From assembly GCA_032718475.1 (NCBI GenBank), contig JAUCBJ010003847.1, positions 1 through 64,000 of the forward strand: a stretch of DNA of 64,000 bases, written 5' to 3'. Below the pieces are notes generated by a model, which was given only the letters and a program-made list of their open reading frames with translations, made no database searches and was not told the origin of the DNA. Origin of the DNA: Nemertoderma westbladi. Lineage: Eukaryota; Animalia; Xenacoelomorpha. Shown here piece after piece: positions 1,255 to 58,171 of the stretch. Made by a program: the position numbers and the translations under genes. Each line of letters starts with the position of its first letter. Position 1 is the stretch's first letter.

Positions 1255-1545
1255 TATACCACCAAGCCCCATTAGTCAGTATGTCGGTACTTTCAATTAT
1301 CACATTATGAAGTTAAGCAGAATTCCGACAATTACTGCAAATTGTAAAATCTAATATATATTTTTTATACTGTGTGTGTTTGCCCCAGCAACCTACCAGT
1401 TTTCCATTGGTATCACTGATTTACTTACTGTATAGGGTTCCAATGTTCTGTGGTCTGATGTCTGTTTGGGATAGGTGGTAACAGAGTTCATGGTGCGATA
1501 TTTTAGGTCATTGGTGCAATATAGATAGGCTTTGGGTAATCCTTT

Positions 1546-1601
1546 GTCCAGCTGATGAGGTGTCGAGATTACCGCGTACTGGGTCTCAGACACCGAAACG
1601 C
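1546..1601 (+). ncRNA. Hammerhead ribozyme motif, non-circularly permuted (copy 1)
   Basis: GUCCAG-CUGAUGA-GGUGUC-[GAGAUUACC-GCGUA^CUGGGU-CUCA]-GACACC-GAA-ACGC. Core CUGAUGA 1552-1558, stem II GGUGUC/GACACC, GAAA 1595-1598, stem III ACGC/GCGU, stem I GUCCAG/CUGGGU. Predicted cut at 1578/1579. Confidence 0.75.
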
Positions 1602-2244
1602 AACCATATTTTTGATAAATTAATTATTTTTGCTTGAATTCTACCCCTTTACGGCGACAAAATGTCATATATTTTTCTATGGAATATAGGCTTAGCTATT
1701 GTGCAGTATACTACCGGTATCATTTAGTGTATGGCGGTTAGGTTAGGGTTAGGGAGCGATGCATACCTGTATGTTGAGCATGTTTCAATATATTTGTTTA
1801 TGTCGTTTTTGTTTGTATTATTTTGTGTCGTTTTTTTTTTTTTTTTGATGGCCTTAGGGCTAAGTTTTACTTAGGGCTTAATGTCCTGATCCTACGTTTT
1901 TTTGTTAGATTAAGGGGTGTAAGTCTTTAGTGTTTACCCATTTATTATATTTATATACCACCAAGCCCCATTAGTCAGTATGTCGGTACTTTCAATTATC
2001 ACATTATGAAGTTAAGCAGAATTCCGACAATTACTGCAAATTGTAAAATCTAATATATATTTTTTATACTGTGTGTGTTTGCCCCAGCAACCTACCAGTT
2101 TTCCATTGGTATCACTGATTTACTTACTGTATAGGGTTCCAATGTTCTGTGGTCTGATGTCTGTTTGGGATAGGTGGTAACAGAGTTCATGGTGCGATAT
2201 TTTAGGTCATTGGTGCAATATAGATAGGCTTTGGGTAATCCTTT

Positions 2245-2300
2245 GTCCAGCTGATGAGGTGTCGAGATTACCGCGTACTGGGTCTCAGACACCGAAACGC
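2245..2300 (+). ncRNA. Hammerhead ribozyme motif (copy 2)
   Basis: Identical to 1546-1601, offset +699. Confidence 0.75.
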
Positions 2301-2943
2301 AACCATATTTTTGATAAATTAATTATTTTTGCTTGAATTCTACCCCTTTACGGCGACAAAATGTCATATATTTTTCTATGGAATATAGGCTTAGCTATTG
2401 TGCAGTATACTACCGGTATCATTTAGTGTATGGCGGTTAGGTTAGGGTTAGGGAGCGATGCATACCTGTATGTTGAGCATGTTTCAATATATTTGTTTAT
2501 GTCGTTTTTGTTTGTATTATTTTGTGTCGTTTTTTTTTTTTTTTTGATGGCCTTAGGGCTAAGTTTTACTTAGGGCTTAATGTCCTGATCCTACGTTTTT
2601 TTGTTAGATTAAGGGGTGTAAGTCTTTAGTGTTTACCCATTTATTATATTTATATACCACCAAGCCCCATTAGTCAGTATGTCGGTACTTTCAATTATCA
2701 CATTATGAAGTTAAGCAGAATTCCGACAATTACTGCAAATTGTAAAATCTAATATATATTTTTTATACTGTGTGTGTTTGCCCCAGCAACCTACCAGTTT
2801 TCCATTGGTATCACTGATTTACTTACTGTATAGGGTTCCAATGTTCTGTGGTCTGATGTCTGTTTGGGATAGGTGGTAACAGAGTTCATGGTGCGATATT
2901 TTAGGTCATTGGTGCAATATAGATAGGCTTTGGGTAATCCTTT

Positions 2944-2999
2944 GTCCAGCTGATGAGGTGTCGAGATTACCGCGTACTGGGTCTCAGACACCGAAACGC
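2944..2999 (+). ncRNA. Hammerhead ribozyme motif (copy 3)
   Basis: Identical to 1546-1601, offset +1398. Confidence 0.75.
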
Positions 3000-3530
3000 A
3001 ACCATATTTTTGATAAATTAATTATTTTTGCTTGAATTCTACCCCTTTACGGCGACAAAATGTCATATATTTTTCTATGGAATATAGGCTTAGCTATTGT
3101 GCAGTATACTACCGGTATCATTTAGTGTATGGCGGTTAGGTTAGGGTTAGGGAGCGATGCATACCTGTATGTTGAGCATGTTTCAATATATTTGTTTATG
3201 TCGTTTTTGTTTGTATTATTTTGTGTCGTTTTTTTTTTTTTTTTGATGGCCTTAGGGCTAAGTTTTACTTAGGGCTTAATGTCCTGATCCTACGTTTTTT
3301 TGTTAGATTAAGGGGTGTAAGTCTTTAGTGTTTACCCATTTATTATATTTATATACCACCAAGCCCCATTAGTCAGTATGTCGGTACTTTCAAGAATAGC
3401 TGAGGTATTAGCGTTCGAAAGTTGCATGCATTTGCATCTGCGCGAAGCAATTTTATACGGCCATATTATAGTACGGTATGGCTACATTTTGTTCTTATAG
3501 TTCCGCACGTAGCTGCATTTTGAATTTATA

Positions 3531-5066
3531 TGTAGGCGGATTCAATTCCGTGCATTGCCCACCGAAAATGGGACTAGTGGCATTTTACCAATATAGTTGG
3601 CGATGTGAGATTACCAATAATAATCTCACCTCCTAACCAACTGGGGGGGGGGGGGGGGGGATACACGCCGTAACCCACAAAGGAAGGTGAGAGGTCAAAC
3701 CACCTCACAGGGACAAACCTACTACTAGGATCGGCATGCTGCATTGCAGCTGCATTTTTAAGAATGCTGTGCCGGCTTGTCAACAAAATTGCACTGCCAC
3801 AACTCCCTATCACCCATGACATTTGCTAGATCATCCGCATCTTTAAGGCCAGTGTCCTTTAAGATGCGTCTCAAGAAAGTCATGGGCTGTCCACCATGCT
3901 TATTCACTCCATGAGGCTGCCAAAGTACGAGATTATGCACTGGCTGGTCCTCACGGCGAAAGCAATGTCCTGCAAAGCGGAGGCGATTTTGTTCTAGTGT
4001 CAAGCTTGGGGGAACCAATGAGACACCTCCAATGTTATATAGTGTCTGGTTGGAGATGTGTGCATTGTACTTGACACAATGAACCCGGCGTAGCATTCTT
4101 GTGAATGTGCCATCCAGAGATTTGGTGTCCTCAGCAGTTAGAGCCCAGCATGGACTCCCATAGAGGAGTACTGGAACTACTGCTGCTCTAAATAATCGGA
4201 CCTTAAGTTTCCGATTAATTCTCGGTGACTTCCAAATCCTGGAAAGCCTATTCAAGGCTGCCCATGCCTTTCCCTTACGTATTCGAAGGTCCTCACCTGA
4301 CTTCCGGATCCATGATCCCAGGTAACAGAAGTCGTCCACATGCTCAAGCATACCATCCTTTGAGCTTATGCTCATCCGATCAGAGACTTGCTGAGGACTT
4401 TCAAAGTTAACTGTCAGGATTTTGGTCTTTCTGGAGTTAATAAAAAGACCAACACTAGAAGCAGCATGTTCTAATGAGCTGAGGAGCCGTTGGGCTCCCT
4501 CTAATGATTCTGAGAGTTCTCCTAAGTCATCAGCAAAGTCTAGATCAGTTACGTACTTGGCAGGATTTCCTCGACTTCTGGAGCCAGGTTTGTCCCTTCC
4601 AGGGACAAACCAGCTAGTGAGGCTAGCACCAAGGGGTAACGCCAACAGGGAGTGGCGAAGTGACAATTAGTAGATAAGCCAATAGTGGGCAGGAAAGCAC
4701 ATTGGGGAGGACAACAGCGCATCCATTGGATATTAGAGGGCACCCAGTAGTGTATGGCTAAAACCAATATGTGTCAATGAATAACTCTTGTAATCACTGA
4801 TTATTAGTTAGTTGATTCCCTTACAGTTATAGTTTTTGACTGTCGTTGTTACTGTTACTGTTTGCATTGCATATTATTATATTCAGACTGTGCTATTATC
4901 AATTGCTGTGATTATCAATACTGACAACTAACTCCATTGTTTTCTATCGGCCTTTGGCCAAACATATTTATCCAGCCGTCAGCCCAGCAGCCCAGCGACG
5001 CAACGACGCGTACAACCTACACCGGTTAGTATCCACTACTGTCAACTCAAAGTGGATACCGTCACA
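3531..5066 (+). repeat. 5' LTR of a BEL/Pao element (~645 bp), interrupted by an RTE LINE
   Basis: Starts TGTAGGCGGATTCAATTCC, ends CCGTCACA, and is followed by GTCAAAAAC and gag. Homologous to the LTRs at 9562-10219, 37751-38238 (inverted) and 61097-61210. Confidence 0.85.
3720..4587 (-). mobile_element. 5'-truncated RTE-clade LINE (RT C-terminal half)
   Basis: ORF 3758-4666 contains LDFADDL, FCYLGS and RLRFAGHCFR; 3' (TAG)n tail; 12-bp TSD CAGGGACAAACC at 3708-3719 and 4600-4611. Confidence 0.92.
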
Positions 5067-6689
5067 GTCAAAAACTACCAACGACACAACAGAGATAAAC
5101 TGTGACCACAACTAGGAAGATGAGCGAACAGACGCCCCGAGGTTCGGAGAGGTACCGGCCCGCCACACCGGATTCATCAACAAGGGACGCTCCGGATGTC
5201 GAGGAGGAGGGCGACTGGGTACGAGAAGGAGAGAGACGCGAGTTGACACGGAGTGGCGAGAGGAGCACCGGGATCGCCATCCAGTCAGTGGCTACACCCG
5301 GCGAACGGCCCACCGGAACGGCAAAGGTGGGGCCAACGGTGCTACGCCGGATGAGTAAACAAGGTCAGGAGGTCAAGGAGGAGGATGTCGGGACGAGCGA
5401 TCGACTACGACGCACGTACAACGCGACGAGGGAGATGATAAAGGACGCTAGAGAAGGAGGAAAGGTGAACGAACCCAAACTAACTCGGAGACTCGATGAG
5501 TGTAATAAACATTTTCACTACCTAGTCCGATTTGGGCAGGGGGAACTGGCAAGTGAAAGGGCGAGGGGGATCGCCACGGAACTTTTTGAATTGTGGAGGT
5601 CCAAGGTTATACCGAATGGTGTGGTGTACGAAGGGCCTTATCTGGTGGATGTGCAGGGGGTTAAGTTAGTGGGATGGGCGGGTTCGAACGACGCCGAACT
5701 CGAGGTTATTCCGGAAGATTCGGCGTTGTCCGTTAGTGAAACCACCAGTAGGTGTGATACAATCAGTGGAACCAGCAGGCAACGGGGGTCCGTCGCAACC
5801 GAAATGTCCGCTACACCCTCCGCGAAAGCAAGAAGGGTATTAGAATCAAAAGGAATTAGAGAGACAATTGGGTGAAGGGACCGCGTTGTTAGAGAGAGAG
5901 AGAGGGAGTTAGCGAGAGAGTGTAGTGAGAGAACCGCGAGGGAGGCAGAGAGGATTGAGAAAGAGAGGGAGAGAGAAATAGCTGGTAAGAGAATGCGGGA
6001 TGATATGCATACCCGGGAGGGGGTTAATGCAGTATCAGGCGAGACAAAGGCGCCGATTTGAACTGGCATAAATGGGTTTAACAGAGAGCGAAGCGAGTTC
6101 GGGAAGTATTTATGAGGAACCAGAGGTGATGGAGACCTTTGTTAATACCCCAGTTACAGATACGTTTAGTAGTGATGTTAATATTAACAATACTGTAGTA
6201 GGTGGTTTAAATACTAATGAGAGTGTATTTCTTACAGGAAATGATGTTTCGGTGAATAATTTAAATAATAATAATGTTCATACTGGTACAGAAAATAATT
6301 TAAATAATTTAAATAATAATGTTAATGGTGGCTCAATAAATAATTCGAATAATCTAAATAATAACGGTGGGCAAAGTAATTTAAATAAAAATATAATAAA
6401 TAAGGAGGGGGAAAGTAAAGACGGTATAATTAATATAAGCGGTCGAGAGGCAAACAATTCGCCTGGGAGGGGCCTTGTAGGCCACGCAGCAGCGCAGGGA
6501 GAAACACAGGGGTAAGAACCCAGGGGGAACAGGAGTAATGTGTCGACTAGAGGGGGGCGTGAAGGAAGGGGTGAGACGAGAAGTGACGGGTGGGGGGGGG
6601 GGGGGGGGGCTATGGGCACCCCACCGCAACCAGTTAGTGACTGGTTGGGGGGAGGCTACGGGCACCACACTGCAACTGGTAAGTAACGA

Positions 6690-6860
6690 GAGAAGGGGGG
6701 CAACAGACGCCCCACAGGCGTCGGTAGAAAATGTGCACGGTGAGTTAAGTGAACCATGGCACCTGACGACGGGGGGAAGGAGGGGGGCAACAGACGCCCC
6801 ACAGGCATCGGCAGAAAATGCGCGCGGCGAGTTAAGTGAACCGTGGCACCTGACAACAGA
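6690..6860 (+). repeat. Two ~87-bp tandem units inside the BEL gag region
   Basis: RRGATDAPQASVENVHGELSEPWHLTT versus RRGATDAPQASAENARGELSEPWHLTT. Confidence 0.85.
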
Positions 6861-7691
6861 GGAAAGTAGAAGGGCAGCGAATATCTATGAGGCTGTACAA
6901 CCGGGTAAAGGGAAAAACGTTCATGCCGAAAGCGGCCAAACGAAGGAACGTCGAGCCCACTCGGGAGACAGAAGGAGAACGGTAGAGTTCATCCGGGAGG
7001 TCGATACGAGACCTCATGAACATAGGTATAACGCCGGGAGTAGAGGACGCGAGGAGGGCGATAGAGAAGAAGTGAGCGAGGAAGTGTTGCTACGGGCAAC
7101 CAGAGGGGAAGGACGGACAGTGAACCATCGGTAGTCGAGATGGAGACAGAGAGCTGGTGGGGTCGTACTCTGGGAGATTGCCATCGCCCCGGAGAAACGC
7201 AACCTGGTGAAATATACAACACACCGGGAGAGTGGTACAGAGTGTACCGGTACGAGGATGAAGACAGGAGAGGGGATTGGAGAGAAACTTCCCATCGGAA
7301 CGTAGCTGCCGATCGAGAATATGGTAGTCGCGGGGAGGACTTCTCGGAATACTCAAGAAGATTAAATTTCAGTCCGGAAGGACACAGGCAGACTGCAGGA
7401 CATACTGTAGGCCTTACTGCACTTACTATAGGCCATTCTGGGAGAGATAGTGTAGGCGATAGGGTAGCGCAAATGACGGGATTAAACCCAGAGGTCGCGG
7501 CGTACATACCAGTTGGTAGGCAAGAAGGCGTTAGGCCTATACCGGTACCTGCACACCAGTATGACTATAACATGCAGGGATATAATATATACCCAAGGGA
7601 GGGGGGAGGTATTGCAGATAGGTGTGTGGGCCCCAACATGATAACATCAACCCAGTACCAAACATAACATCGGTGGGGGGGGGGGGGGGGG

Positions 7692-9561
7692 GTGCAGGGT
7701 GACATTCCCCCATTACAGAATCAGCAATACACGCAACCAAAATCAAGAACCCCAAACCCCTCAGACCCAAATAAATCGTGCGACACAGAGATATGGAGGG
7801 GACCATTACCCCCGATGATATATCCCACGCAGGAAAAGTCGACGGGCCCGATGGGTGAACTGCACCCAACAGCAAAGGAGTCTGTATCCCTACCATCGAG
7901 CGCGCTGGAAGTACAAGCGATGGGAGTGGCAACACTCATCAACGCGCTGAAGACTAGGATTGAGCTGCCCCCAGTGGAGCCCATCAAGTTCGATGGTAGT
8001 AAGCCGGAGGAATATCTGCAATTCCGGCGTATGTACAGCAATGAAATTTTGACAAAAAACCTGACGCAGGCAGAGTGCCTTAAATATCTACAAGTCTACA
8101 CAGGGGGGCCAGCATACGACATCATGAGACAATACCAAGGTATTGAAGGAGGATTCACGACTGCATGGCGAGCCCTGGACAGGGAATTCGGGCATCCTGC
8201 GAAGATTATCCCTTAAGGGGAATAACATCAGGTGGACTACAGGACAACCCTGTCAGCATCAAAACCTTCGCCAACAAAGTAGAAAAGGCGCTAAAAGTAT
8301 TAAAGACCCTGGATGCACCTTATGAACTCAATGCATCAAGCAACATCACTGCAATAGCGCAGGCACTACCGATCTGGCTGAGAAACAAGTGGAGAAAGAT
8401 CACTTTCTCCACACGAGAGAGGAAAGGAGCTGGAGGAGATGTCGAACTTCCTTAACTACGAAGCGGAATTAATCACAGACCCAGTATATAGTGAGGAGAG
8501 TCTCGGTATGGTACCGAAATGCAGCCGGCCTAAACCCAAACATAGTCCGGCGGACGCATTTCCGAGAGTGAGGCAATCATTGCCGTATGCAACCGTCATG
8601 GGGACTTGTAGTCCACAGCACAGCCATGGTGACTATGGAGGAAACAACACCCCTGACGCGGGTTTGCGCAACCAAAACAACAAACCATCCGACTCGGACC
8701 TGGACGAAATACGCAAGACGCTATACAGAGAGCATTATAATCCATACTATAGGTGTCAAATACATAGAAAGCATGTGCATATGTGGGATACGACACATAA
8801 GACCGTCGATTGCGACCAGTGGCAGGCACTGCTGAAGGAACATCGATTAGCCTATACAGGGAGATTTGGGTTATGCCACAGATGCGCGGTGGGAGGACAT
8901 AAGAAGGATAGATGTCGAGAGAAGCCACCAAAGTACACTGAGACTGATGGAACTGAAGGCCACACGATGGCGACGAGCACCGTGGGAGCAAGGAGGAAGA
9001 GAACGGTACTACTCGGAGTAGTACCAGTGAGAATAGTAGGAGAAGACAGGCTATCGGTCACGACACTAATGTTGGTCGATAGCGGAGCAGCATTCACGCT
9101 AACGGAAAGTTGGGTGGCCGAAAAGATAGGGTTACGGACGAGGCCTAGTAACATGGCGGTAACCACTGTTTCCAGTAAGGACGAGGTCATGAGAATGAGA
9201 ACGGGATGCTGCGAGATAACAGTGATAACACCAGGGTGCGATTTTGGGGCTTCCATCGAACCCATCCAGATAATAGAATCAATCAATATTAACGCCAGGC
9301 GGCCCATGAAGATCGAGGTCGAGCAATACCAGTACCTGGACAACATCGATTTCTCCGTGCCCGAACTGGACGTCCCGAAAGTATCTCTCATAGTCGGCAT
9401 GGACTGTCCAATGGCCCATGAGAGACTACAGACCATTTTCGGCGATGACAGGGACCGAGACCCGATGGCCATTCTCACGCCATTTGGATGGACGCTTACT
9501 GGCCCAATTAAGATGAGGACACCGTTTGGTGTATCCGAAACATCAGGATGCATGCTGTCCG
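7692..9561 (+). pseudogene. gag-pro: BEL/Pao gag (DUF1759-like) plus aspartic protease, frameshifted
   Basis: ORFs 7692-8216, 8165-8455 and 8439-9566 are collinear with the unbroken copy at 62334-63899. Confidence 0.85.
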
Positions 9562-10219
9562 TGTAAGCGGATTCAATTCCACTTCATTACCCACCAGAAA
9601 ATGGGCTAGTGCCATTTTAGCAATATGTTGGGGATACGAGATTACCAATATCAATCTCGTATTATAACCAACATTGGGGGGGGGGGGGGGGCGACACAAA
9701 CCTCCAAAGCCACAGAGAGAGGTAAGAGGTCAAACCACCTTGGAGGGAAGGCAGCTAGTAGGGACTAGCAGCGGGGGGGGGGGGGGGGGGGGGGGGTGGA
9801 CACTCCCAGAGAGTGCCAAGGTGACAAGTAGTATATTAGCCAATAGAAGGGAGGGAAGCACGTGATAGGGAACAGCAAAGCATCCATTGGGTAGAAGGCC
9901 AAAGTAGAGTAAGAAGGTGAAGCAATATTCAATGTATTAGCCATATATTATCTCAGATTGTTAGATTAGTGCATCAGTTATTCAGTTTAGGGCTGTACGG
10001 TCATAGTTATTGACCGACACCGCCTTACCAGTATCTATATTCGGTTATTCTGCAATTTCTACATTGTGCTATTATCGAACGTATTAACTAATAACGAGAC
10101 AACAATAACTCTCATTGTTTTAACCCAACGGCCTCGGCCAAAGCTATTAGCACGATCCCCAAAGCAGAACGGTGACGCGTACTCTAACTAAACTGGTCGG
10201 GATCTCTGATCCCGTCACA
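9562..10219 (+). mobile_element. BEL/Pao solo LTR (658 bp) inserted into a related BEL element
   Basis: TGTAAGCGG...CCCGTCACA flanked by a 5-bp TSD GTCCG (9557-9561 and 10220-10224). Confidence 0.92.
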
Positions 10220-11400
10220 GTCCGGTACTGTTGAGGACATAGAGCAGAAGTCAAAGACGGGCGATGGGGAGGTCCCATATAAGAAGCAGCCCGGGGGAGG
10301 ACACCAGGAGTCGGGGATAGGTATGGATCTGGAACCATGCATAGTGGGGCGTGGTGAAAGGGTGGAGGATAAGTCCAGAGAAATACCACCGATAGATGAG
10401 TCAGGAGGAGAAGCAACATCAAGCGAGTGGGCGGAGGAGAATGGGTTCGATGCAGAGGACCTAGAGGCGATGGGATGGAACATAGGTGTTCCTGGCAAGC
10501 ATCGGTATGAGGATGGAGAAGAGTGGACGGCGAGATATCCGGATAGATGTCCGGAACAGACGCCGGTCCAGTTGAGAAGCATACCGATGGGGAGTAGGTC
10601 GAATAAGAAGACAAGGTGGAAAGGGAGAGGATGTGGGAGGATTAGACCAAGGGCGGAGAAGACGATGATGAAGTGTGACAAAGGAGGCAGGGAAGTTGGA
10701 GGAGATGTGTTGTACACGCACATGGGGCTGGCAGAGTGCGAGGGGGCATTAAATGGTAAGCCATTATGCGTACCGAAGGATGACCGGGGGTCATCAGGGG
10801 CTTTAACGCCGGCGCACATATTGAGGGGAGGCCAGCAGAGGTGGCATGTACCAGTGAGGATGGCATGAGGGGCGGCATTCTACCGCCAAGTGACGACAAG
10901 GTGGAGGGTGGAATTTTGCTGCCAGGGGACCACGAGGAGATCAGCAAGGTGATGGAAAGACCCGATTTTAGGGTGGAGGAGAAGGGAAGGTCGATTCCAA
11001 TAGAGTTGGAATTGACAAGGAGAGTGGGGCGAAGAATAAGAGGACCTACAGGGGGGCAGTGGGAGAGTTGCCTGCTGGAAGAATCGCCCTTAGGTGGTTG
11101 AGTCGTCCAATAAGTTGGACTGAGGGGGGTCGAAGATGGAAGAATTAGATCCGTGGAAGTGAGGATCGGAGGAAAGATAGGGGCCAAAGATAGGAAGACC
11201 TACAGGAGGGCGGTAGGAAAGTGTTGCCTATTGGAAGGGTCGCCTTAGAGTTGAGTCGTCCAATATATTGGACTGAGGGGGGTGGGAATGAGGGCGAGAC
11301 GCCCTTCCCACACATAAAAATAAAATAAAAATAAGCAAAATAACAAATAAGTAGTTAGTACCAAGGTACAATGTAGGTAATTACAATTATGTACGTCGGG

Positions 11401-27649: not shown

Positions 27650-28216
27650 TTACATCAAAAACCCTCCACCAAACAATAATAAATTATTAACCAGTTTGTT
27701 GAATATAGGATAATATATATGAAATTTAAACGGAGAACACATTAATGAACTTTTACCTGTGTAGAAACAGCAAACAACAACAATATTATTTATTCTGACT
27801 TTACAGTTATTGAATATTTCTGGCTCGTATGAAATTTCTAGTTTAACATTATCAAATATAACATAAAACTCGATATTGTTTATAAGTAACCTATAGATTA
27901 CAGTGTCAATACTAAAAATATAAGTACACAAATTGATAGATTTAAAAATCAAATTAATGTTTGTTTGTTCAAATATATGCTTTTTAACTTTATTAAAATT
28001 ATATTTTCTACCAAGAATTGTTATTCGTCCATTTGTAAACATTAATATGGTTGCACCAAATACCTTATATATAAACTGATTAGGTTTGAGTATAATTTTA
28101 CCTGTCAATTGATTTTTTAATTCTTTTAAATTAAGTCCATAAATGATCTGCTTACAACTTATATTTTTATTTACTATTTGATAATTCATCATCATCATCA
28201 CCTTTTGGTTCTTCAT
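27650..28216 (-). CDS. TATA-binding protein (TBP)-like protein
   Basis: Two TBP-like repeats: YQIVNKNISC...GATILMFTNGRITILGRK and SINLCTYIF...ISYEPEIFNN...VVCCFYTGK (compare TBP TALIFSSGKMVCTGAK and SYEPELFPGL...LLIFVSGK). Confidence 0.78.
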   Translation of the reverse strand: MKNQKVMMMMNYQIVNKNISCKQIIYGLNLKELKNQLTGKIILKPNQFIYKVFGATILMFTNGRITILGRKYNFNKVKKHIFEQTNINLIFKSINLCTYIFSIDTVIYRLLINNIEFYVIFDNVKLEISYEPEIFNNCKVRINNIVVVCCFYTGKSSLMCSPFKFHIYYPIFNKLVNNLLLFGGGFLM

Positions 28217-28237
28217 AAGTTGGTATATTTGATATTT

Positions 28238-40339: not shown

Positions 40340-40559
40340 TATAATATAAGATTTCTGATTCACCACACTTTTTTCCAAGAGATGGTGTCGTCTATCTTAA
40401 GGACCTCGCTACAATTTTGATCCTGGATATTAGATTGTCCAGTAGTTTTCTTGCATATTATCATTTTGTTTAACGATTGTACTGTAGGTTACTTTGGCTT
40501 GTGTCAACTAAAATATCCATAGCTTAGCTACTGAAACTGCCGCGATTTCTGCATTGTTC

Positions 40560-42176
40560 ATGTTACAACCACAGCCGAGTAATACCGCACCGATAACAGT
40601 AGAACAAGGTCATAGCAGTAGATATCCGACACAAATGGAGGAGAAAAACCATATTAATTTAACTCCTCCAAAGGAGCGGAAAAAACACCTAAGAAGCCCA
40701 CTTAGACCACGCAGACCTATCGCGCAAAGAAGACAACTAGATAGGATATTCATGAAGTATGATAAGGTAGAAATTAATGAGGATATATCGGAAAGCGCTA
40801 ACCATGGTGGGACTAGGCAACTATTCAATATGGATGATATAGTCTCTTGGGATGAAGAAAGAGCTACAAGATATATTTCCAAGGATGTAATCGGATGGGT
40901 TATACAAAGCACCCCATTTAGAGTTGTGATTGTTTTACTAATTATAGTGAATTCAATCATGATTGGAATTCAGACAATGGAAACTCTCATGCGTGAATAC
41001 GAAAGTTTCTTTGCTGCATTTGACATATCGTTAACCACGATATTTGTTGGAGAAATATTGTTAAAATGGAGGTATAATTTCTTCTTGTATTGGAAGAGTG
41101 GATGGAATTTTCTGGACGTTATACTCATTGGAGCAGTCCTTATAGAAGGTAACCTAAAGTTTTTAGTGAGTGGTCGTGTGTTAAGGATACTTAGAGTCCT
41201 TAGGGCATTGAGAACCTTCCGTGGTACCCAGTTATTTTTTGGATTATCCACTCTGATGGAAACTATCCTCTACTCTCTTCCAGACATGGCTAATATCGCT
41301 ATGCTTCTGTTAATTGTTATGATGATGTTTTCCGTAATAGGCTCCATTCTATTTGGGTCTGAATATCCTGAATATTTTGGTAATTTTGCAAATGCGTTGT
41401 TTACAAACTTTATCTGCGTCACTCAGGATGGATGGGTTGAAATATACCGAAAAAAGATGATCTTGAGCGATATATCAACCTACGCGGCAATATATTTTAT
41501 GTTATCAATTATAATTGGAGCTTTTGTTTTTGCGAATATAATTATCGCTGTGGTTGTAACTAATTTAGATAAATCAATTCGAGGAAAAGAAGAGGCCCCG
41601 GATGCCATAAAAGACAAAATTAAAAAGCTCGCATTCACCAACAGAATAGGCTGGTCTGAGCTTGAAAGTAAAATTCCAATGGTTCACCCGAATGTGTCAA
41701 TGTCTAGTTACAATGTGTTCAAACAAAAACCATTGGAACTTATCGATTTCTCCAGAGTACATCCATATAGACTGGAAACATATTTTCTTATAATTCTTGC
41801 TTTGGAAGAAAATCTCAAACAATATCGGATACTTCGTGAAAGACTCCAAAGGGTTGTTGAAAAACAAAACGAATACAGTCACAATTTACAAATGAAAAGG
41901 AAAGAGACTGTCTTGGAACCAAAATCAAAACTTCGGCGATCAACATCTATTGATTACGAGCTTATGGGCGAATTAACGCGCAGAGGAGATATAGTTTCTG
42001 GAATCGTTGAGATGGATAAACGGAACATGTTGGAGAAAGATGATGGACGTGGTGGTATCATTGAATTAGTGCGACCTCAAACCCAGAAACAAACTGCTGC
42101 TGCTAAAAATCTAGTGAGGAAAGGATCGTTGACCACATTGTATGGAGTCCAAGGTCGACAGAGAGACAATAAATAA
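40560..42176 (+). CDS. CATSPER4: CatSper4-like sperm cation channel alpha subunit, intronless (paralogue A)
   Basis: Single 6-TM domain: S4 GRVLRILRVLRALRTFR, YWKSGWNFLD, pore CVTQDGW (TQDGW is the CatSper4 filter), S6 FVFANIIIAVVVTNL, coiled coil ALEENL. Confidence 0.88.
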   Translation: MLQPQPSNTAPITVEQGHSSRYPTQMEEKNHINLTPPKERKKHLRSPLRPRRPIAQRRQLDRIFMKYDKVEINEDISESANHGGTRQLFNMDDIVSWDEERATRYISKDVIGWVIQSTPFRVVIVLLIIVNSIMIGIQTMETLMREYESFFAAFDISLTTIFVGEILLKWRYNFFLYWKSGWNFLDVILIGAVLIEGNLKFLVSGRVLRILRVLRALRTFRGTQLFFGLSTLMETILYSLPDMANIAMLLLIVMMMFSVIGSILFGSEYPEYFGNFANALFTNFICVTQDGWVEIYRKKMILSDISTYAAIYFMLSIIIGAFVFANIIIAVVVTNLDKSIRGKEEAPDAIKDKIKKLAFTNRIGWSELESKIPMVHPNVSMSSYNVFKQKPLELIDFSRVHPYRLETYFLIILALEENLKQYRILRERLQRVVEKQNEYSHNLQMKRKETVLEPKSKLRRSTSIDYELMGELTRRGDIVSGIVEMDKRNMLEKDDGRGGIIELVRPQTQKQTAAAKNLVRKGSLTTLYGVQGRQRDNK

Positions 42177-46526: not shown

Positions 46527-47890
46527 CTCTATGGTTCTTTTCGGGGAATCTCATTGATCTCGATTGCTGCAAAGCTATACAATAGAATTCTATTAAATCG
46601 CATTAGGGATCCCATATAGAGACTGCTCCGTGGAAATCAGAATGGGTTCCGTAAAGGTCGTGGGACCATGGAGCCCATTTTGGCACTTAGAAGGATAATT
46701 GAAGAGTTATCAAAAAAGAAAGACAGGCATCTGGCAGTTATCTTTGTTGACTTCTTCAAGGCCTTTGATTCAGTCTCTCGCTCACGTATGTTCAGCATAC
46801 TTTCATTATATGGGATTCCTGATTAAATTATTGCAGCAATCAGATCAGTATATGATGGTTCGACAACATTTGTGTCTACTGTTGACGGTGACACAGAACC
46901 ATTTGAAGTGTTATGGGGCGTCCTCCAGGGAGACACACTTGCACCATTCTTGTTCATAATTGTTGTTGACTATGTTCTACGCATGTTCTTAGATCATCAT
47001 AATGATGATGGGGTGATAATAACTCCACCTACTGGCTCCAGAAATCGAGGAAATCCTGCCAAGTACCTAACTGATCTAGACTTTGCTGATGACTTAGGAG
47101 TACTCTCAGAATCACTAGAGGGAGCCCAACGGCTCCTCAGCTCATTAGAACATGCTGCTTCTAGTGTTGGTCTTTTTATTAACTCCAGAAAGACCAAAAT
47201 TTTGACAGTTAACTTTGAAAGTCCTCAGCAAGTCTCTGATCGGATGAGCATAAGCTCAAAGGATGGTATGCTTGAGCATGTGGACGACTTCTGTTACCTG
47301 GGATCATGGATCCGGAAGTCAGGTGAGGACCTTCGAATACGTAAGGGAAAGGCATGGGCAGCCTTGAATAGGCTTTCCAGGATTTGGAAGTCTCCGAGAA
47401 TTAATCGGAAACTTAAGGTCCGATTATTTAGAGCAGCAGTAGTTCCAGTACTCCTCTACGGGAGTCCATGCTAGGCTCTAACTGCTAAGGACACCAAATC
47501 TCTGGATGGCACATTCACAAGAATGCTACGCCGGGTTCATTGTGTCAAGTACAATGCACACATCTCCAACCAGACACTATATAACATTGGAGGTGTCTCA
47601 TTGGTTCCCCCAAGCTTGACACTAGAACAAAATCGCCTCCGCTTTGCAGGACATTGCTTTCGCCGCATAATCTTGTACTTTGGAAGCCTCATGGAGTGAA
47701 TAAGCATGGTGGACAGCCCATGACTTTCTTGAGACGCATCTTAAAGGACACTGGCCTTGAAGATGCGGATGATCTAGCAAATGTCATGGGTGATAGGGAG
47801 TTGTAGCGGTGCAATTTTGTTGACAAGCCGGCACAGCATTCTTAAAAATGCAGCTGCAATGCAGCATGCCGATCCTAGTAGTAGTAGTAG
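46527..47890 (+). mobile_element. RTE-clade LINE fragment (RT domain to 3' tail)
   Basis: FRGISLISIAAKLYNRI, NQNGFR, GVLQGDTLAPFLF, LDFADD; (TAG)n tail; near-identical to 3720-4587. Confidence 0.92.
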
Positions 47891-48519: not shown

Positions 48520-49644
48520 AACTTGTGGATGCAAAAAAACGCATTTAACAAAGTGAACAGGGTGATGGCTTTATGGCACATTAGGGTGCTATGGCCAAGA
48601 TAGATGTGGGCGGGCGTTTCATGTTCAACACATACCTTGTCATTCACCTAAAGACTCAGATTCAATTAATACAAGTATGGTATGCTGATAACACCCAGGG
48701 GATCGGTAAGCTGCATCATCTTAGGGAATGGTTTGTAGAGCTCGGCCATTGTGGACCAATGTTTGATTATTATCCTGCGCCGGAAAAGTATATACTTGTT
48801 GTGGAATATACAAACATAGAGCTTGGTAATCACTTGGAGCTTGGCATCACTGTAGATGGAGATCATGATCCTGAATGAGCTGACACCACAACAACACCAG
48901 GCAGCTGAGAGGGCATCATCAGCAATATCTCACTGGCTAACAGTACCTCCAATCAAAATTCACCACTTTGACCTTTCTCCGTGCGAATTTCGCCATGGCT
49001 GCCGGCCTCTTGTCAATGCGATGAGCCGAGCTCCTGTGATGGTTGTGGGGGTATGTTTACTTTAGCCCATGCCCTCGACTGTAAGAAAGGAGGCTTGGTA
49101 ACCTTACGCCATAACGAGGTCGGAGATGCACATGGTGGGCTTTTTGATCTGGCATTCCCAGGCACTTCAGTTGAATGGGAGCCGATCATACGGGAGGTGG
49201 GTGATGAGAGTGGCATTGCTGGACTACGGGCCGACATTTCTGTGAGGGGATTTTGGCAGCCGCAGAGGAGGGCGTTGTTCGCTATTAGAGTATTTGACTC
49301 AGATGTCCCCTCTTACGCTGAAAGAACAGTCCAGTCACTATTGTCTTCTGCGGAGCATGAGAAGAATACTAAGTACTCCAATGCATGCAGTCAATGTCAG
49401 GCAGATTTCTCATCCCTGGTTACTACAGTGTACGGGTGGAGAGTACACCATAATCCTATGCCGTCTTGCTACATATTTTAGTTAGAAATGGGACAAACCA
49501 TATCCACGGGTGATGGGCTGCGTAAGAGCCAGGCTATCTTTTGCCACTTTAAGGGCAACATGTGCCTGCTTTAGGTCTTCTCACTCTGTATGGCGATGGG
49601 CTGGTGTGGTGGATGGTGCTTCCCTACCTTATGTACACATTTAA
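48520..49644 (+). mobile_element. Decayed CRE-like non-LTR retrotransposon (RT relic, Zn knuckle, restriction-like endonuclease)
   Basis: VDAKNAFN (frameshifted), QVWYADN, CDGCG...HALDCKKGG...RHNEV, RADISVRGFW. Confidence 0.75.
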
Positions 49645-50829: not shown

Positions 50830-53800
50830 AGGGTCGAATATGTCTAACGCGATGCACTCATTGACGGACCCTGGTGAGAGACCTATCAACCAATCACAGA
50901 CCATACGGGACACAATGCCAACTACAGTGCATCCCGTAGAGGAACCGCCCACTTCAATCTGGGTTGACGGAACCCCAATAACGTCTCCCCAACAATATAG
51001 AGTTTGTATGGGGGAAGCTGAGATTAAAAGAAATGAAGGAGAAGATGTTCCGAAACCCACTCTACCAAACATACCTTTAATAGATACTAGCAGCTTCATA
51101 GATCAACATGAAAACGAACCTATAAAGATTGAGTTGCCACACGCCTCAAAAACTCAGCAAACAAAACCCTTGCAGAGGGATGTGTAGAAATGATAACCGA
51201 ATCTCTTATAAATGAATCGACGAGTAATGATAATGTAAATAATAAGCGGATGGGACAGGTTCCTGTAGGAGTGGGACCCACCTTCCCTCCCTCATGAGAG
51301 GTATTGGAAGACCCTGTGACCTCGGGAACTGTCCAAGAAGAACCGCTAAGGAAAAATGATGATAAACAGACGGGACAGGTTTCAGGAGCAGGAGCAGGAG
51401 CAGGACCTACCTTCCCTCCCACACGGGAGGGGTTGGAGGTACTTGTGCCCTCAGAAACTGTCAAAGAAGAACAGCTAAGGATAGCAAATGAACAGTTAGT
51501 TGAGTTTCTACATATAATAAATAATATGAATAAAGAGCCAATCAACGAGGAGAAGAGACCAACTCGACATATAACACCCAAACCTTATCAACACATGAAT
51601 CTCTGCATGAGAACGGATTCTGAAGACTCCAGCGAGAGTAATATTCCTCCTCAAAAAGTTTACCCAGAAATGGAAAACTTGAAAACTAACATCAAAGATT
51701 TATCTGAAACTGTTAAAAACTGAACACAAAACCTAAACACTCCACGCCAAGAAACAAAGGCGAAGAGATCGGAGCACTCAGCGCGACCCCATCAGACGAA
51801 TTGCCATTTGTCTCATCAATGTACAAAGTCAAAGACAATTTACATTACAAAGCGTATTATATAATGGTGGAAGTAAGTCGCCAATGAACCATCCTCACAC
51901 AAGAGTCCCATTGTCACCTCATCCCCAAGACGTCCGATTCTACACTGGACACTCATTCCCAAAAGACCACTATACACCCAGTAGAGCGTGTCCAGAGGTG
52001 CCACCGAATGAACCGGATGACCCATTCAATGGTGATGACAATGACAAACCCCTGAGGAAACGGAAAAACAAGATCCCCAAGAAAAAAACAGGGAAATGAC
52101 AAAACTAAAAAGAACCGCCTCCACAACCACGTCGGAAATGGCAACCAGATCCGTCACCAGATCCAAGTGATTTCTCATCATCATCCTCCGAATCGGATTT
52201 CAGCGATGATTCATCCTCAACGTCTTCTGAGAAACATTGAAGACGCCAAAAGCGAGATAAACGAAATTATCAACTCCAAATGGGTGATATCTTAGCAACA
52301 TCCCTAGAAGGACCAAGACTGGAATCAACAAAATTTAATGGAAACTCAGCGGAATTTATCTCGTTCAAAGCACATTTTATTGCTCAAGTGGATAGCAAAA
52401 ACGTCCCCATAACCACAAAAATAAGATGTCTGTTAACCTATATATCTGGGAAGGCATCACAGAAGGTCAAACATTATGAGGGAGTAGACGATGGATATCA
52501 GCATGCATGGGACATGTTAGAGAAGAACTTTGGTAACCCGACAGCTGTAATGAAATCAGTGATACATAATGTCACCACGTGTAAATTCCCGATTGTAACA
52601 GATTCACACGTAGACGAATACGCGGATGACATCCGACAAAGTCTGGAAATACTCCAAACATTAAAATGTCCACACGCACTAAATAGTGCTGACAATATGA
52701 GCAGAATCGTAGTGAATCTGGACTTCTCGGCTCGATAAAAATGGGTGAACGAGGCGCAACACTTCCGTCTACGACATGGTACCGAACCCGACATGTATGC
52801 ATTCGCTGATTGGATAGAGAAATAAGCTGATAGAGTTAAAGATCCTTTGTTTGACAACCTTGCGTTGAAGGAACTTCTATCCATTCAAATGGGAGAGTCC
52901 TACGCTAGGATACGTCCCTCTATGGTTCAAACAATGACCATTCTCACATTGCGGAAAGGTAAAGCAGAGAAATTAAACCTGAAATCTGCTGCCAAAACTA
53001 AACCTATCCCAGCAGTGCACAGTCTAGCCATCCAATCCCAAGAAGAAGGAGAAAATGTTCGTGTGACCAAACACGTCACAGATGAAGAGGAAATATACTC
53101 AAGTGATGATGATTTCTAGACAACTAATCCACATATTAACACGTTTGCAATAACATGGTCTGCTGAACCGATAAACATCTATCCAGGCGGACTAACCCAA
53201 CAATGTTATGAAAGCAACGGGAAACATCGTGTGAATCAGTGTCCGAAATTCCAAAGTCTCTCACACAAGGAGAAGTATGATACATGTTTCCATCTACAAC
53301 TCTGCTTAGTCTGTCAAGGTTTGAGACATTTCCATAAACATTGTAAATCATTAGAAAAATATCGGTGTTCTAAAACCACCAAGGAGGGCATGTGCCAGGA
53401 GGCACATAGCCCAGATCTTCATCCAGAACCAGCCGACATAAATGACAAATTCAAATGGTTAACAGATGAATATAAGAGAGTAGCAAGTGGACCTCCAACA
53501 CCTCACGAGGCATGGTTGAAACTCCATCCTGAGAGTAAAGGATCAAAGAATACCCTGAAAACTCTTCCTCCACCACCAAAAACAACTACCTCGTTGTTTC
53601 AAGTATATTATTATGAAGACACGACACTATGCACAATGCCTCCTACTAATAACGACGAGATTACGGCGATGGGCCACCAAAAAGGGAGCAGCGGTATTCC
53701 TAAAGATCATCCCTATACAAGTCGAAAACTGCAACACAAACGCCATTATATCAACATATGCGTTCCTTGATAACGGTTCAACAGGCACCTTCATAGACAG

Positions 53801-54110: not shown

Positions 54111-55353
54111 TACTACTAGGATCGGCATTTTTAAGAATGCTGTGCCGGCTTGTCGACAAAATTGCACCACCACAACTCCCTATCACCCATGATATTTGCT
54201 AGATCATCCGCATATTCAAGGCCAGTGTCCTTTAAGATGCGTCTCAAGAAAGTCATGGGCTGTCCACCATGTTTATTCACTTCATGACGCTGCCAAAGCA
54301 CAAGATTATGCACTGGCTGGTCCTGCAATGTCCTGCAAAGTGGAGGCGACTTTGTTCTAGTGTCAAGCTTGGGGGAACCAATGAGACACCTCCAATGTTA
54401 TATAGTGTCTGTTTGGAAATGTGTGCATTGTACTTGACACAATGAACCCGGCGCAGCATTCTTGTGAATGTTCCATCCAAAGATTTGGTGTCCTCAGTAG
54501 TTAGAGCCCAGCATGGACTCCACTAGAGGAGTACTGGAACTACTGCTGCTGTAAATAATCGGACCTTAAGTTTCCGATTATTTATCTGTGACTTCCAAAT
54601 CCTGGAAAGCCTATTCAAGGCTGCCCATGCCTTTCCCTTACGTATTCAAAGGTCCTCACCTGACTTCCGGATCCATGACCCCAGGTAACAGAAGTCGTCC
54701 ACATGCTCAAGCATACCATCCTTTGAGCTCATACTCATCCGGTCAGAAACTTGCTATGCTGAGGACTTTCAAAGTTAACTGTCAAAAGTGTCGTCTTTTT
54801 GGAGTTAATAAAAAGACCAACACTAGAAGCAGCCTGTTCTAATGAGCTGATGAGCCGTTGGGCTCCCACTAGTGATTCTGAGAGTACTCCGAAGTCATCA
54901 GCAAAGTCTAGATCAGTTAGGTACTTGGGAGGATTTCCTCGACTTCTGGAGCCTGTAGGTAGAGTTACCATCACCCCATCATCATTATGATGATCTAAGG
55001 ACATGCGTAGAACATAGTCAACCACAATTATGAACAAGAATGGTGCACGTGTGTCTCCCTGGAGGACTCCCAATAACACTTAAAATGGTTTTGTAGTAGA
55101 CACAGTAGACACAAATGTTGTCGAACCATCGTATACTGATTTGATTGCTGCAATAATTTCATCAGGAATCCCATATAAAGAAAGTATGCTGAACATACGT
55201 GAGCGGGAGACTGAATCAAAGGCCTGGAAAAGTCAATGAAGATAACAACCAGATGCCTGTCTTTCTTTTTTGATAACTCTTCAATTATCCTTCTAAGTGC
55301 CAAAATGGGCTCCATGGTCCCACGACCTTTACGGAACCCATTCTGATTCCCAC
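54111..55353 (-). mobile_element. 5'-truncated RTE-clade LINE (older copy)
   Basis: NQNGFRKGRGT, GVLQGDT, LDFADD, (TAG)n tail; same family as the two other copies, with more substitutions. Confidence 0.9.
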
Positions 55354-56539
55354 CTACAGTACTAACCATTGCAATTGCAATGGTCAGTACTATAGGTGGG
55401 TCCCTCCTCAGTCATTATCATCAACCTATAAACCATTTAAACGGCCCAGTGCTTACAATTCAATCAGCTGGCCTCCCACCTAACATCTATGAGTAAACTT
55501 ATAGATATTCCCATAGGATTTTTCTGGGAAGAGCTATTCAGCTGGCGGGGTAATACATTATACAAACTTACAGTTGATGTTTGATTACTGTCTGGGATAG
55601 AGAGGGAGAGAGTAATAAACTTGGCAAGTAATATACTTCTGTGCAGTTTGGGCCTATCCATTCAATCAATACTAGTAGCTTACTAGACCCTCATGAGTAC
55701 CAGCTGCTGGTGTTTCTATCGTTGAGTTGATGGCAATTTTCGTGTTTTCATTTTCGCTCACTCTGGGTACTGGTTTGAGGGGTAGGTTCGTTTAAAGTCG
55801 TGTAAAGCTTTCTAGTATATCAACGTTTTCACATTTTTTTAAATAATTTTAAAATATGCCAGCTAGTAAAAAAAAACTACCTTAATAAATAAATACTACT
55901 AATGTTCTAGAACATTCAATGGAACATATATATAACAGTATAGTATATATGTATCCTGCCCATTGCCCCATTTTTGGTAACAAAAAATTTTTATTTATTT
56001 TATAGTTGATCATTTTTTGACCATTTTCATGGCTATTATCATGATATTATGTTCTGGAACATATATTTTTGAGAGACGTTAGCTATTATTTGTGTGGCAG
56101 ACATTAATATTCTATGTGAAAAAAATTACCTGACGATCTAATGTAAATTATTAGCTACCATGACTCAGAAAATTAAGGATTAATTGGGGATTAAATACGA
56201 TTAAAATGTTAAATTGCAGATTTTTTTTTACAAGCTAATCAAATGTACAAGCTAGCACAAAATCAACATTTCTAGCTACAATCTTACTGTCAGAAGGTAA
56301 AATATTTCTTCTAGAACAAAAAACATCCATCCAATCATGATAAAAGCCATTTTTACATGAAAAAATTGGTCAAATGTTGGTACCCAGGGCATAGTATATT
56401 CAGATCTTGGTACAAGACTATTACATCAAATATTAGATAAATTTAATTCCGTAGATAGAGTTATTAAATTCTAGAATACTAAATTCATTAGTAATATAAA
56501 ATATATAATAGGAATTTGTACTATAATGTATGAAGCGAA

Positions 56540-58171
56540 ATGGCATCCATAACTCCATATTCGGATTCACCCGGCAGAGAAATTTATGGAAAGCGTCTTC
56601 ACACTGCCATCTCACGTTTTAGATACTTGTTTAGAAAGAAACCACTACCCCCAGCAGATGATCACCATCAAAATGTAAGACATTCTAAAGGTCTAATGGC
56701 CTCACACAGAAAACAGCTTGATAGAGTATTCTTATGTGATGAACGAGATCAAACTGTAAAGCCTAGGAATACAATAGAAGACAATGAAGGGTTGGAAGCA
56801 GTTGGAAAAGGGGAAGGGCAGCCATCTAATATGGATGATATAGTAACATGGGACGAAGACAGAGCCACTAGATATATTTGCAAGGACGTAATTGGTTACG
56901 TTCTGAGAAGCACTCCATTTAGAATAATGATTGTGATTCTAATTGTAATAAACTCAATCTTAATTGGAGTTCAGACTGACGAACCAACACTGCGTAAGTA
57001 TGAAACATATTTTGCGAATCTTGACTTGGCGCTCACGACGGTATTTATTGCAGAGATTATTCTCAAATGGAGGTATAACTTCTATCTGTACTGGAAGAGT
57101 GGATGGAATGCCTTAGATGTGTTACTTGTGGCAGCCGTGCTTCTAGAAGATAGCCTCAAGTTTTTAGTGAGTGGTCGTGTGTTAAGGATACTTAGAGTCC
57201 TGAGGGCTTTGAGAACATTCCGTGGCGCCAATTTCCTTCTGGGGTTATCAACTCTCATACAAACAATCCTCTACTCTCTTCCAGACATGGGAAATATCGC
57301 ATTACTTCTCTTCATCGTAATGCTGATGTTATCGGTAGCTGGTTCAGTTTTATTTGGGGCAGACTTCCCCGAAAGCTTCGGTAATATAGGTACTGCGTTG
57401 TATACAAACTTTATCTGCGTAACCCAAGACGGATGGGTTGACATATACCGAGGCAATATGGACAAGAAGAGTGACCAAAGTGTTTTAGGTGCAGTATATT
57501 TCATTATTTCCATTGTAGTTGGTGCTTTTATTTTTGCGAATATAATTATTGCAGTTGTGGTAACAAATTTAGATAAATCGATTCGCGAAAGTCGAGGTTT
57601 GACCCAGACTGATCAATCGACACCAAAAGGGGATGAAATAAAAGAGGACGTCTGGGCTGACAAAACTAAGAAAATCTCCATGAAACAACCCGAGGTTGTT
57701 ATGTCCTCTTTCGATGTGTTCAAGCAAACACCACTGGAAATTATTGATTTCTCTAAAGTAACGCCGGCAAGGCTAGAAACCTATTATTTGCTTATTCTGG
57801 CTTTGGAAGAAAATCTACAGAGATATCAGAAACTCCATGAAAAACTTGTTCGACTAGTTGACAATCAGAACACATATCGCCGTAATTACTACGAAAAAAG
57901 AAATCGAGATACTCCAATCGATGATGAGAGTGTTAGTGTTGACTACAATCTTATGGCAGAATTTACGCACACAGGAGATATCGTTTCAGGTGTTGTTGAG
58001 ATGGACAAACATAATATGTTGGACAAAGATGATGGACGAGGGGGTATCCTTGATTTATTGCGCCCCCAAACTATCAAAAGAACTGCCGCCGCTAAAAATC
58101 TTATAAGACACGTCTCGAGGACATCCAACCTGATGTTAACAAAAAAGGAAGAACAAGGAAATGATAAATAA
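56540..58171 (+). CDS. CATSPER4: CatSper4-like sperm cation channel alpha subunit, intronless (paralogue B)
   Basis: Same S4, TQDGW pore, S6 and ALEENL motifs; intact 543 aa; collinear with paralogue A. Confidence 0.88.
   Translation: MASITPYSDSPGREIYGKRLHTAISRFRYLFRKKPLPPADDHHQNVRHSKGLMASHRKQLDRVFLCDERDQTVKPRNTIEDNEGLEAVGKGEGQPSNMDDIVTWDEDRATRYICKDVIGYVLRSTPFRIMIVILIVINSILIGVQTDEPTLRKYETYFANLDLALTTVFIAEIILKWRYNFYLYWKSGWNALDVLLVAAVLLEDSLKFLVSGRVLRILRVLRALRTFRGANFLLGLSTLIQTILYSLPDMGNIALLLFIVMLMLSVAGSVLFGADFPESFGNIGTALYTNFICVTQDGWVDIYRGNMDKKSDQSVLGAVYFIISIVVGAFIFANIIIAVVVTNLDKSIRESRGLTQTDQSTPKGDEIKEDVWADKTKKISMKQPEVVMSSFDVFKQTPLEIIDFSKVTPARLETYYLLILALEENLQRYQKLHEKLVRLVDNQNTYRRNYYEKRNRDTPIDDESVSVDYNLMAEFTHTGDIVSGVVEMDKHNMLDKDDGRGGILDLLRPQTIKRTAAAKNLIRHVSRTSNLMLTKKEEQGNDK

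Follow-up and report, generated by a model that had tools for sequence, protein, structure and literature searches.

The locus analysed here, a 699-bp tandem repeat in a 64,000-nucleotide stretch of Nemertoderma westbladi DNA (the window, by which the whole stretch is meant), raises three questions: whether the hammerhead-like motif present in every unit is a self-cleaving ribozyme, to which structural type it belongs, and by what route the repeat that carries it was multiplied.

Hammerhead blocks in the 699-bp repeat

The sequence CTGATGA-GGTGTC-N24-GACACC-GAAAC was found on the + strand at positions 1552, 2251 and 2950, and was contained in none of 100 shuffles. The first-pass annotation had interpreted this sequence as a hammerhead, once per 699-bp unit, whose cleavage strand is nested in the loop of stem II. 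This interpretation was borne out. In each of the three motifs stem I consists of 6 bp (four Watson-Crick and two G.U pairs), stem II of 6 bp and stem III of 4 bp. Residue H17 is A1578 in the first unit, and cuts are predicted after A1578, A2277 and A2976. The positions of the three blocks and of the other features of the repeat are listed in Table 1.

Table 1. Features of the tandem array and of the predicted ribozyme (window coordinates)
Feature	Position	Strand	Description
Tandem array	1255..3393	+	Three identical 699-bp non-coding units plus 42 bp
P4, 5' strand	1535..1541	+	GGUAAUC; unit 1, add 699 / 1398 for units 2 / 3
Block C	1546..1564	+	Stem I strand GUCCAG, core CUGAUGA (1552-1558), stem II strand GGUGUC
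P4, 3' strand	1567..1573	+	GAUUACC; linker 1, between stem II and stem III
Block S	1574..1584	+	Stem III strand GCGU, H17 = A1578, predicted cut 1578/1579, stem I strand CUGG(GU)
Block G	1589..1601	+	Stem II strand GACACC, GAAA, stem III strand CGC
TTAGGG x2	1743-1754	+	Within 699-bp unit
T16 tract	1831-1846	+	Within 699-bp unit
Second ribozyme copy	2234..2300	+	Predicted cut after 2277
Third ribozyme copy	2933..2999	+	Predicted cut after 2976

Six orders of the hammerhead blocks were defined by Eckert et al. in 2023, in the part of their paper drawn on here, and the order C-S-G was named type CSG (PMC10085705). When both strands of the window were scanned for all six orders, with stems of at least 4 bp, three matches only were obtained, every one of them C-S-G. 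The window contains 43 CUGANGA words, and these three are the only ones for which Watson-Crick pairing of both stem I and stem III was found inside 100 nt. No type I, II or III closure, that is, no circularly permuted three-way junction, was found for the three motifs, in agreement with the earlier claim that the strand order is not circular. The sequence elements of type CSG are present: CUGAnGA, GAAA and the UH site are each flanked by stems, and their 5'-3' order is C, S, G. Judged by sequence, the ribozyme has every testable defining feature of type CSG with the exception of within-family covariation of stems I-III. Comparison of the window with Rfam yielded no match at the gathering score, and at E values up to 10 gave five weak matches, no hammerhead among them.

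The frequency of such arrangements in randomized sequence was estimated in two ways. The cleavage strand arose 638 times when the 24-nt loop was shuffled 2,000,000 times. In shuffles of the non-redundant window some permutation of the blocks was seen in 2 of 150 when G.U pairs were allowed, CSG in none, and with Watson-Crick pairs only no permutation was seen in 150.

Copies of the repeat in sequencing runs

The unit or part of it was present in six runs, five under organism label A and one under label B. The exact window variant occurred in independent reads, as an 80-nt contig (1533-1612) and a 71-nt contig (1537-1607) with no differences, and the motif is therefore not an assembly artefact. 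The depths of these two contigs (1575 and 2637, compared with 8-37 for longer contigs listed from those two runs) suggest many copies, but they are not a copy number.

The region 1490-1650 was compared across 179 contigs of four runs (51, 113, 14 and 1 contigs). Only substitutions clear of the contig ends were listed, and only for contigs of at least 80% similarity. Within 1530-1601 listed substitutions occurred at 15 positions, affecting 2 of 38 block positions versus 13 of 34 other positions (Fisher p = 0.0009). One of the two block changes, A to G at 1590, retains a G.U pair; the other, at 1581, was seen in two single contigs, which by their depth also carry indels in block S. Between 1545 and 1564 the sole listed substitution was at 1556, where the change of U7 to C was the commonest core change and was present in all four runs; position 7 is the free position of the core. 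In block S no listed substitution was found at 1574-1580, and loose contig ends retain GCGTACTGG although the linker preceding GCGTACTGG differs. The single contig of run X6, a presumed RNA run, represents the one fully phased variant copy; its eight listed substitutions are outside the blocks except that at position 7. It spans the predicted cut site and carries no information on expression. No pile-up of copy ends at the cut site was seen, a feature that contigs are unable to reveal.

The linkers varied by substitution as well as by indels while the blocks were retained, in several variants and under the second organism label. This pattern argues that, at least at an earlier stage of the family, the RNA fold was under selection. 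Stems I-III were nearly invariant across the copies, and for this reason no covariation of these stems was found within the family. The flanks of the ribozyme (1504-1529 and 1602-1633) were as conserved across copies as the core, with listed substitutions at 0 of 58 positions, so it is from the linkers, and not from the sequence around the ribozyme, that the blocks stand out. A diverged ribozyme copy was also present in two long contigs, record 6 of run X1 (2595 nt) and record 14 of run X3 (2626 nt), which are possible candidates for an autonomous partner.

The fourth helix and competing folds

A further helix, P4, which had been overlooked in the first-pass annotation, is formed by seven Watson-Crick pairs between 1535-1541 and 1567-1573. 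Its position matches that of the helix connecting stems I and II in the published CSG ribozymes. Both P4 and stem III were present in the minimum-energy fold of 1530-1610. When the loop shuffles described above were examined for the cleavage strand together with a fourth helix of 6 bp, the combination was found in 9 of 2,000,000. P4 runs straight into the 4-bp stem III with a zero-nt link, an arrangement that is sterically tight.

In the single X6 contig the pair G1536-C1572 is replaced by C-G, which is one compensatory change, and C1541-G1567 by U.G. On the other hand, one side of P4 is disrupted in an abundant contig of run X5 (A to T at 1571) and in a few other contigs (C to A at either 1572 or 1573).

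Nested folding favoured an extended stem II hairpin, with a pair probability of about 0.99 in the circular monomer. In local nested folding the extended hairpin reached 0.63 and P4 plus stem III 0.36; stem I had a pair probability of 0. These figures were obtained with a program that is unable to score pseudoknots. Stacking sums calculated without loop costs were -39.1 kcal/mol for the four helices versus -21.0 kcal/mol for the hairpin. Two competing folds had been put forward earlier as off-states, and they fared differently. The upstream hairpin is disrupted in the X6 copy by the changes at 1536, 1543 and 1544, and was for this reason discarded as a conserved switch. The extension of stem II, the one dominating nested folding, partly survives there: a shorter form is still possible in the X6 variant, and on these folding models the extension may therefore be a retained off-state.

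Published ribozymes of type CSG

The arrangement had been flagged as possibly novel. The block order itself is already in print as type CSG; new are the animal host and the tandem-repeat context. According to the portions of the paper by Eckert et al. used here (PMC10085705), type CSG is represented by five sequences from soil metagenome DNA, which reduce to two unique ones. They have no known host, role or context, none comes from the genome of a known organism, and the support for the type was called modest by its discoverers. The two ribozymes, CSG-1 and CSG-2, cleave slowly (0.004 and 0.026 per min) and carry an 8-bp helix between linker 1 and the sequence preceding stem I. The ribozyme of the window shares with them the order C-S-G, the intact core, the cleavage strand in loop II, the site of P4 and the 9-10 nt length of linker 1. 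It differs in belonging to a multi-copy tandem animal repeat, in its unrelated stem sequences, in having A as H17 and in the 4-bp stem III. Since the CSG search pattern of Eckert et al. requires 4 bp plus U-A in stem III (PMC10085705, same portions), it would miss the family described here. In the literature covered, outside which most subscription journals lie, no report was found of type CSG in animals or of non-circular hammerheads in Naiads; one paper of 2026 merely cites the 2023 work, in the part of its text seen (PMC13725137).

Naiad Penelope-like elements

Naiads were reported to be devoid of canonical hammerheads, some of them having cores that fit no descriptor, and in eight Naiad cores the two halves are 35-50 nt apart (PMC8557442, in part). 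In the 699-bp unit the core halves are 36 nt apart. The file of Naiad consensus sequences (supplement File S5 of PMC8557442, 54 Naiads listed) was searched, in the portions at hand, with 8-9-letter words and the hits were read by eye; such word searches miss motifs that are split by line ends or written with other letters. In eight passages the complete four-helix CSG fold with P4 was recognized by eye, built from different stem sequences with the pairing kept. Three of these passages are 3'-terminal in the Nippostrongylus elements Naiad-1, -2 and -3, as named by the adjacent headers. The other five are located near part 13 (two), part 15 (two) and part 16 (one) of the file, where by file order the other five nematode consensi should lie. 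Each passage holds one complete motif, read by eye as having a stem I of 4-6 bp, a stem II of 4-6 bp, a stem III of 6-12 bp and a P4 of 8-16 bp; stem III and P4 are thus mostly longer than the 4 and 7 bp of the window. In one passage P4 continues directly into stem III, an arrangement shared with the window. By eye, neither the CSG fold nor the form described next was visible at the 3' ends of three Clytia Naiads in the same file, and type CSG is therefore not common to all Naiads.

In eight further passages of the file a second form was observed, whose opening lies between A9 and stem II and whose order is stem II strand, P4, block S, block G, P4 partner, stem I strand and CUGAUGA. These passages lie near parts 8, 10-12, 19 and 24 of File S5; read by eye, six are clean and two partial (one from Acropora, one in the ctenophore range). 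This core-opened form is absent from the six permutations of Eckert et al. and, as read by eye, corresponds to the CSG fold opened elsewhere. In the 64-kb window no core-opened form was found.

The sequences of the file suggest that Naiads were scored as lacking hammerheads because the descriptors used admitted circular permutations only. Apart from the CSG fold with P4 in the eight passages, Naiads resemble the repeat in their T-rich sense strand. They may also share with it the tandem and inverted copies: partial copies of both kinds, with a tail of 30-40 bp, would be expected of a Naiad, and inverted copies are a described feature of Penelope-like insertions (PMC8557442, in the portions used). 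Unlike the window unit, which is 699 bp long and has no ORF, they encode a GIY-YIG/RT protein and measure 3.4-4.4 kb according to the same source. The 699-bp unit, having no ORF for GIY-YIG and RT, is not itself a Naiad. No match to the GIY-YIG family was obtained with the 60 of 90 long frames scanned in the window, and no autonomous partner element was found. The proposed link to Naiads is by analogy: it rests on a common ribozyme architecture, not on sequence homology.

The tandem array and animal retrozymes

The array shows 100% identity at a period of 699 over 1255-3393, which corresponds to 3.06 units. Its GC content is 36%, its longest stop-free frame is 76 codons, so that no longer ORF lies inside, and its + strand is T-rich (279 T in 699). 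To the left, positions 1-1254 are occupied by an element with terminal inverted repeats (1-51 versus 1198-1248, 82% complementary). It ends in ACTG and adjoins the left end of the array at TA, 1255; it resembles a miniature element of the Tc1/mariner type inserted there. As the left end adjoins this element, the array may extend past the start of the window. The right end adjoins another repeat, and with both ends bordered by other repeats the true ends and target duplications are unreadable here. Among other copies, one tandem joint stepping back 639 bases and opposite-strand joints were seen, each in single contigs.

The array has the features of a retrozyme in being non-coding, low in GC, tandem, multi-copy and provided with one hammerhead per unit. 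In the portions of the reports used here, metazoan non-LTR retrozymes carry type I hammerheads in tandem repeats (PMC7229834; preprint 10.64898/2026.07.22.740005). They are tied to Penelope-like elements by Li et al. in the 2026 preprint (10.64898/2026.07.22.740005), where the unit length of animal retrozymes ranges from 51 to 972 bp. The 699-bp unit falls within this range, although it exceeds the 170-400 nt given in the first report (Cervera and de la Pena 2020, PMC7229834, in part). Like these elements it lies in an animal genome, and it would share their proposed Penelope origin in addition to the features listed above. Retrozymes are defined in those texts by a type I hammerhead, however, and the ribozyme of the window is of type CSG. 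By analogy the 699-bp element may work like a non-LTR retrozyme, but without a type I hammerhead it is no member of the group as defined. In the parts of two reports seen, eight of nine Xenopus retrozyme dimers did not cleave (10.64898/2026.07.22.740005), and one Penelope element could be inserted in vitro without cleavage (PMC11167929).

Origin and action of the repeat

The reading that we favour, with a probability of roughly 0.6, is that the repeat is a non-autonomous retrozyme-like element, whose predicted CSG pseudoknot cuts after A1578 and which is copied by the reverse transcriptase of a Penelope-like element, probably a Naiad. A multimeric transcript of the + strand would fold in cis into the four-helix pseudoknot, in which P4 would connect stems I and II at their distal ends and so substitute for the usual contact between loops I and II. 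Slow cutting after A1578 in each unit would release 699-nt monomers, and these would circularise as other animal retrozymes do. The circles would be reverse-transcribed by the Penelope-like, probably Naiad, enzyme to yield tandem arrays. The extended stem II hairpin would serve as a competing off-fold. That the family encodes a functional CSG ribozyme is highly probable, and it is likely, with cutting predicted from the sequence, that the repeat travels by way of self-cut RNA.

The ribozyme could also be real and act mainly as a dimer, the P4 strand and block S of one unit pairing with blocks C and G of the neighbouring unit or of another molecule. Dimeric cleavage is known for minimal Penelope hammerheads, and the units of the array are tandem and identical. 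The zero-nt link between P4 and stem III is tight in cis, and the same problem is remarked on by Eckert et al. in the portions used (PMC10085705). However, CSG-1 and CSG-2, whose linkers are similar in length to those of the window, are described there as cleaving during transcription in single-ribozyme constructs, and the Naiad passages of File S5 hold one complete motif each, with longer stems. We consider a mainly dimeric mode rather unlikely.

Equally to be weighed is an inherited ribozyme that has become inactive, the repeat being now a satellite amplified as DNA and any RNA being trapped in the extended hairpin. The dominance of this hairpin in nested folding would be expected in that case, and 100% identity of the units would also follow from recent unequal crossing-over. 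In addition, most of the retrozyme dimers tested were inactive in the part of the preprint cited above, and no RNA run is on record with the unit, a blank that is uninformative. It is difficult to reconcile such a relic with the retention of the blocks while the linkers changed, in several variants and under a second organism label, and this explanation appears unlikely. Chance complementarity within the loop of a degenerate ordinary hammerhead is very improbable and already largely refuted: stems I and III are short (four Watson-Crick pairs each) and no relative was found in the public contig collections, but block S plus P4 arose in just 9 of 2,000,000 loop shuffles, no canonical closure exists, and the four-helix layout recurs in the published CSG sequences and in the Naiad sequences of the portions used.

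Returning to the retrozyme-like element cut in cis, a broader proposal can be made tentatively, at somewhat less than even odds. Type CSG would be the working ribozyme of a Naiad lineage and of its non-coding animal retrozyme derivatives, the 699-nt unit being one such derivative, cut in cis, gated by a conserved off-state hairpin, circularised and re-inserted in tandem. If this is true, the two CSG ribozymes from soil DNA would stem from Naiads of soil animals, and the core-opened Naiad form would be a circular permutation of the same CSG fold. A multi-copy animal family of independent sequence with the same fourth helix would give type CSG a biological setting, and an entire class of elements would escape retrozyme surveys that rely on type I patterns.

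Searches of public collections and other features of the window

Relatives of the family were sought by pattern in public collections. None was found in viral contigs or in prokaryote genomes, and none of the 29 loci obtained from metagenome contigs had three stems of at least 4 bp. The viral contigs likewise contained no match to a pattern for the published CSG family. A general pattern applied to 5 of 64 parts of the viral contigs returned 118 loci, none of them CSG and one an ordinary type II. These blanks say little because the collections contain little animal DNA. Locus L132, in a viral contig, is a candidate ordinary type II (GSC) hammerhead with stems of 7, 4 and 7 bp. Positions 3001-3053 of L023 are strongly self-complementary and contain hammerhead-like core pieces, with no valid stems. 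A scan of the window for sigma-70 promoters, which is unsuited to an animal, remained at the level of chance.

The window as a whole is a patchwork of retrotransposon remnants plus a Maverick-like element. Remains of LTR retrotransposons with DUF1759 and aspartyl protease sequences, presumably Bel/Pao-like, lie at 5099-11200, 52241-53770 and 61430-63899. Three near-identical fragments of a LINE reverse transcriptase (3758-4666, 46827-47474 and 54200-55400) are assumed by us to be RTE-like. A fragment at 48972-49481 resembles the C-terminal nuclease region of a restriction-like retroelement and is taken to be HERO-like; it has no Pfam match, and no permuted hammerhead was found near or downstream of it. 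The segment 19333-31756, which contains an integrase, an adenovirus-type protease and broken polymerase-like frames, presumably represents a Maverick/Polinton-like element. Within it, an ORF at 27650-28237 is TBP-like (Pfam TBP, E 2e-05), an unusual passenger. Two uninterrupted ORFs, 40512-42176 and 56534-58171, code for ion channels; the latter is CatSper4-like and places the host among invertebrate animals that lack close relatives in the database, its best matches (36-39% identity) being in echinoderms, an annelid and lancelets.
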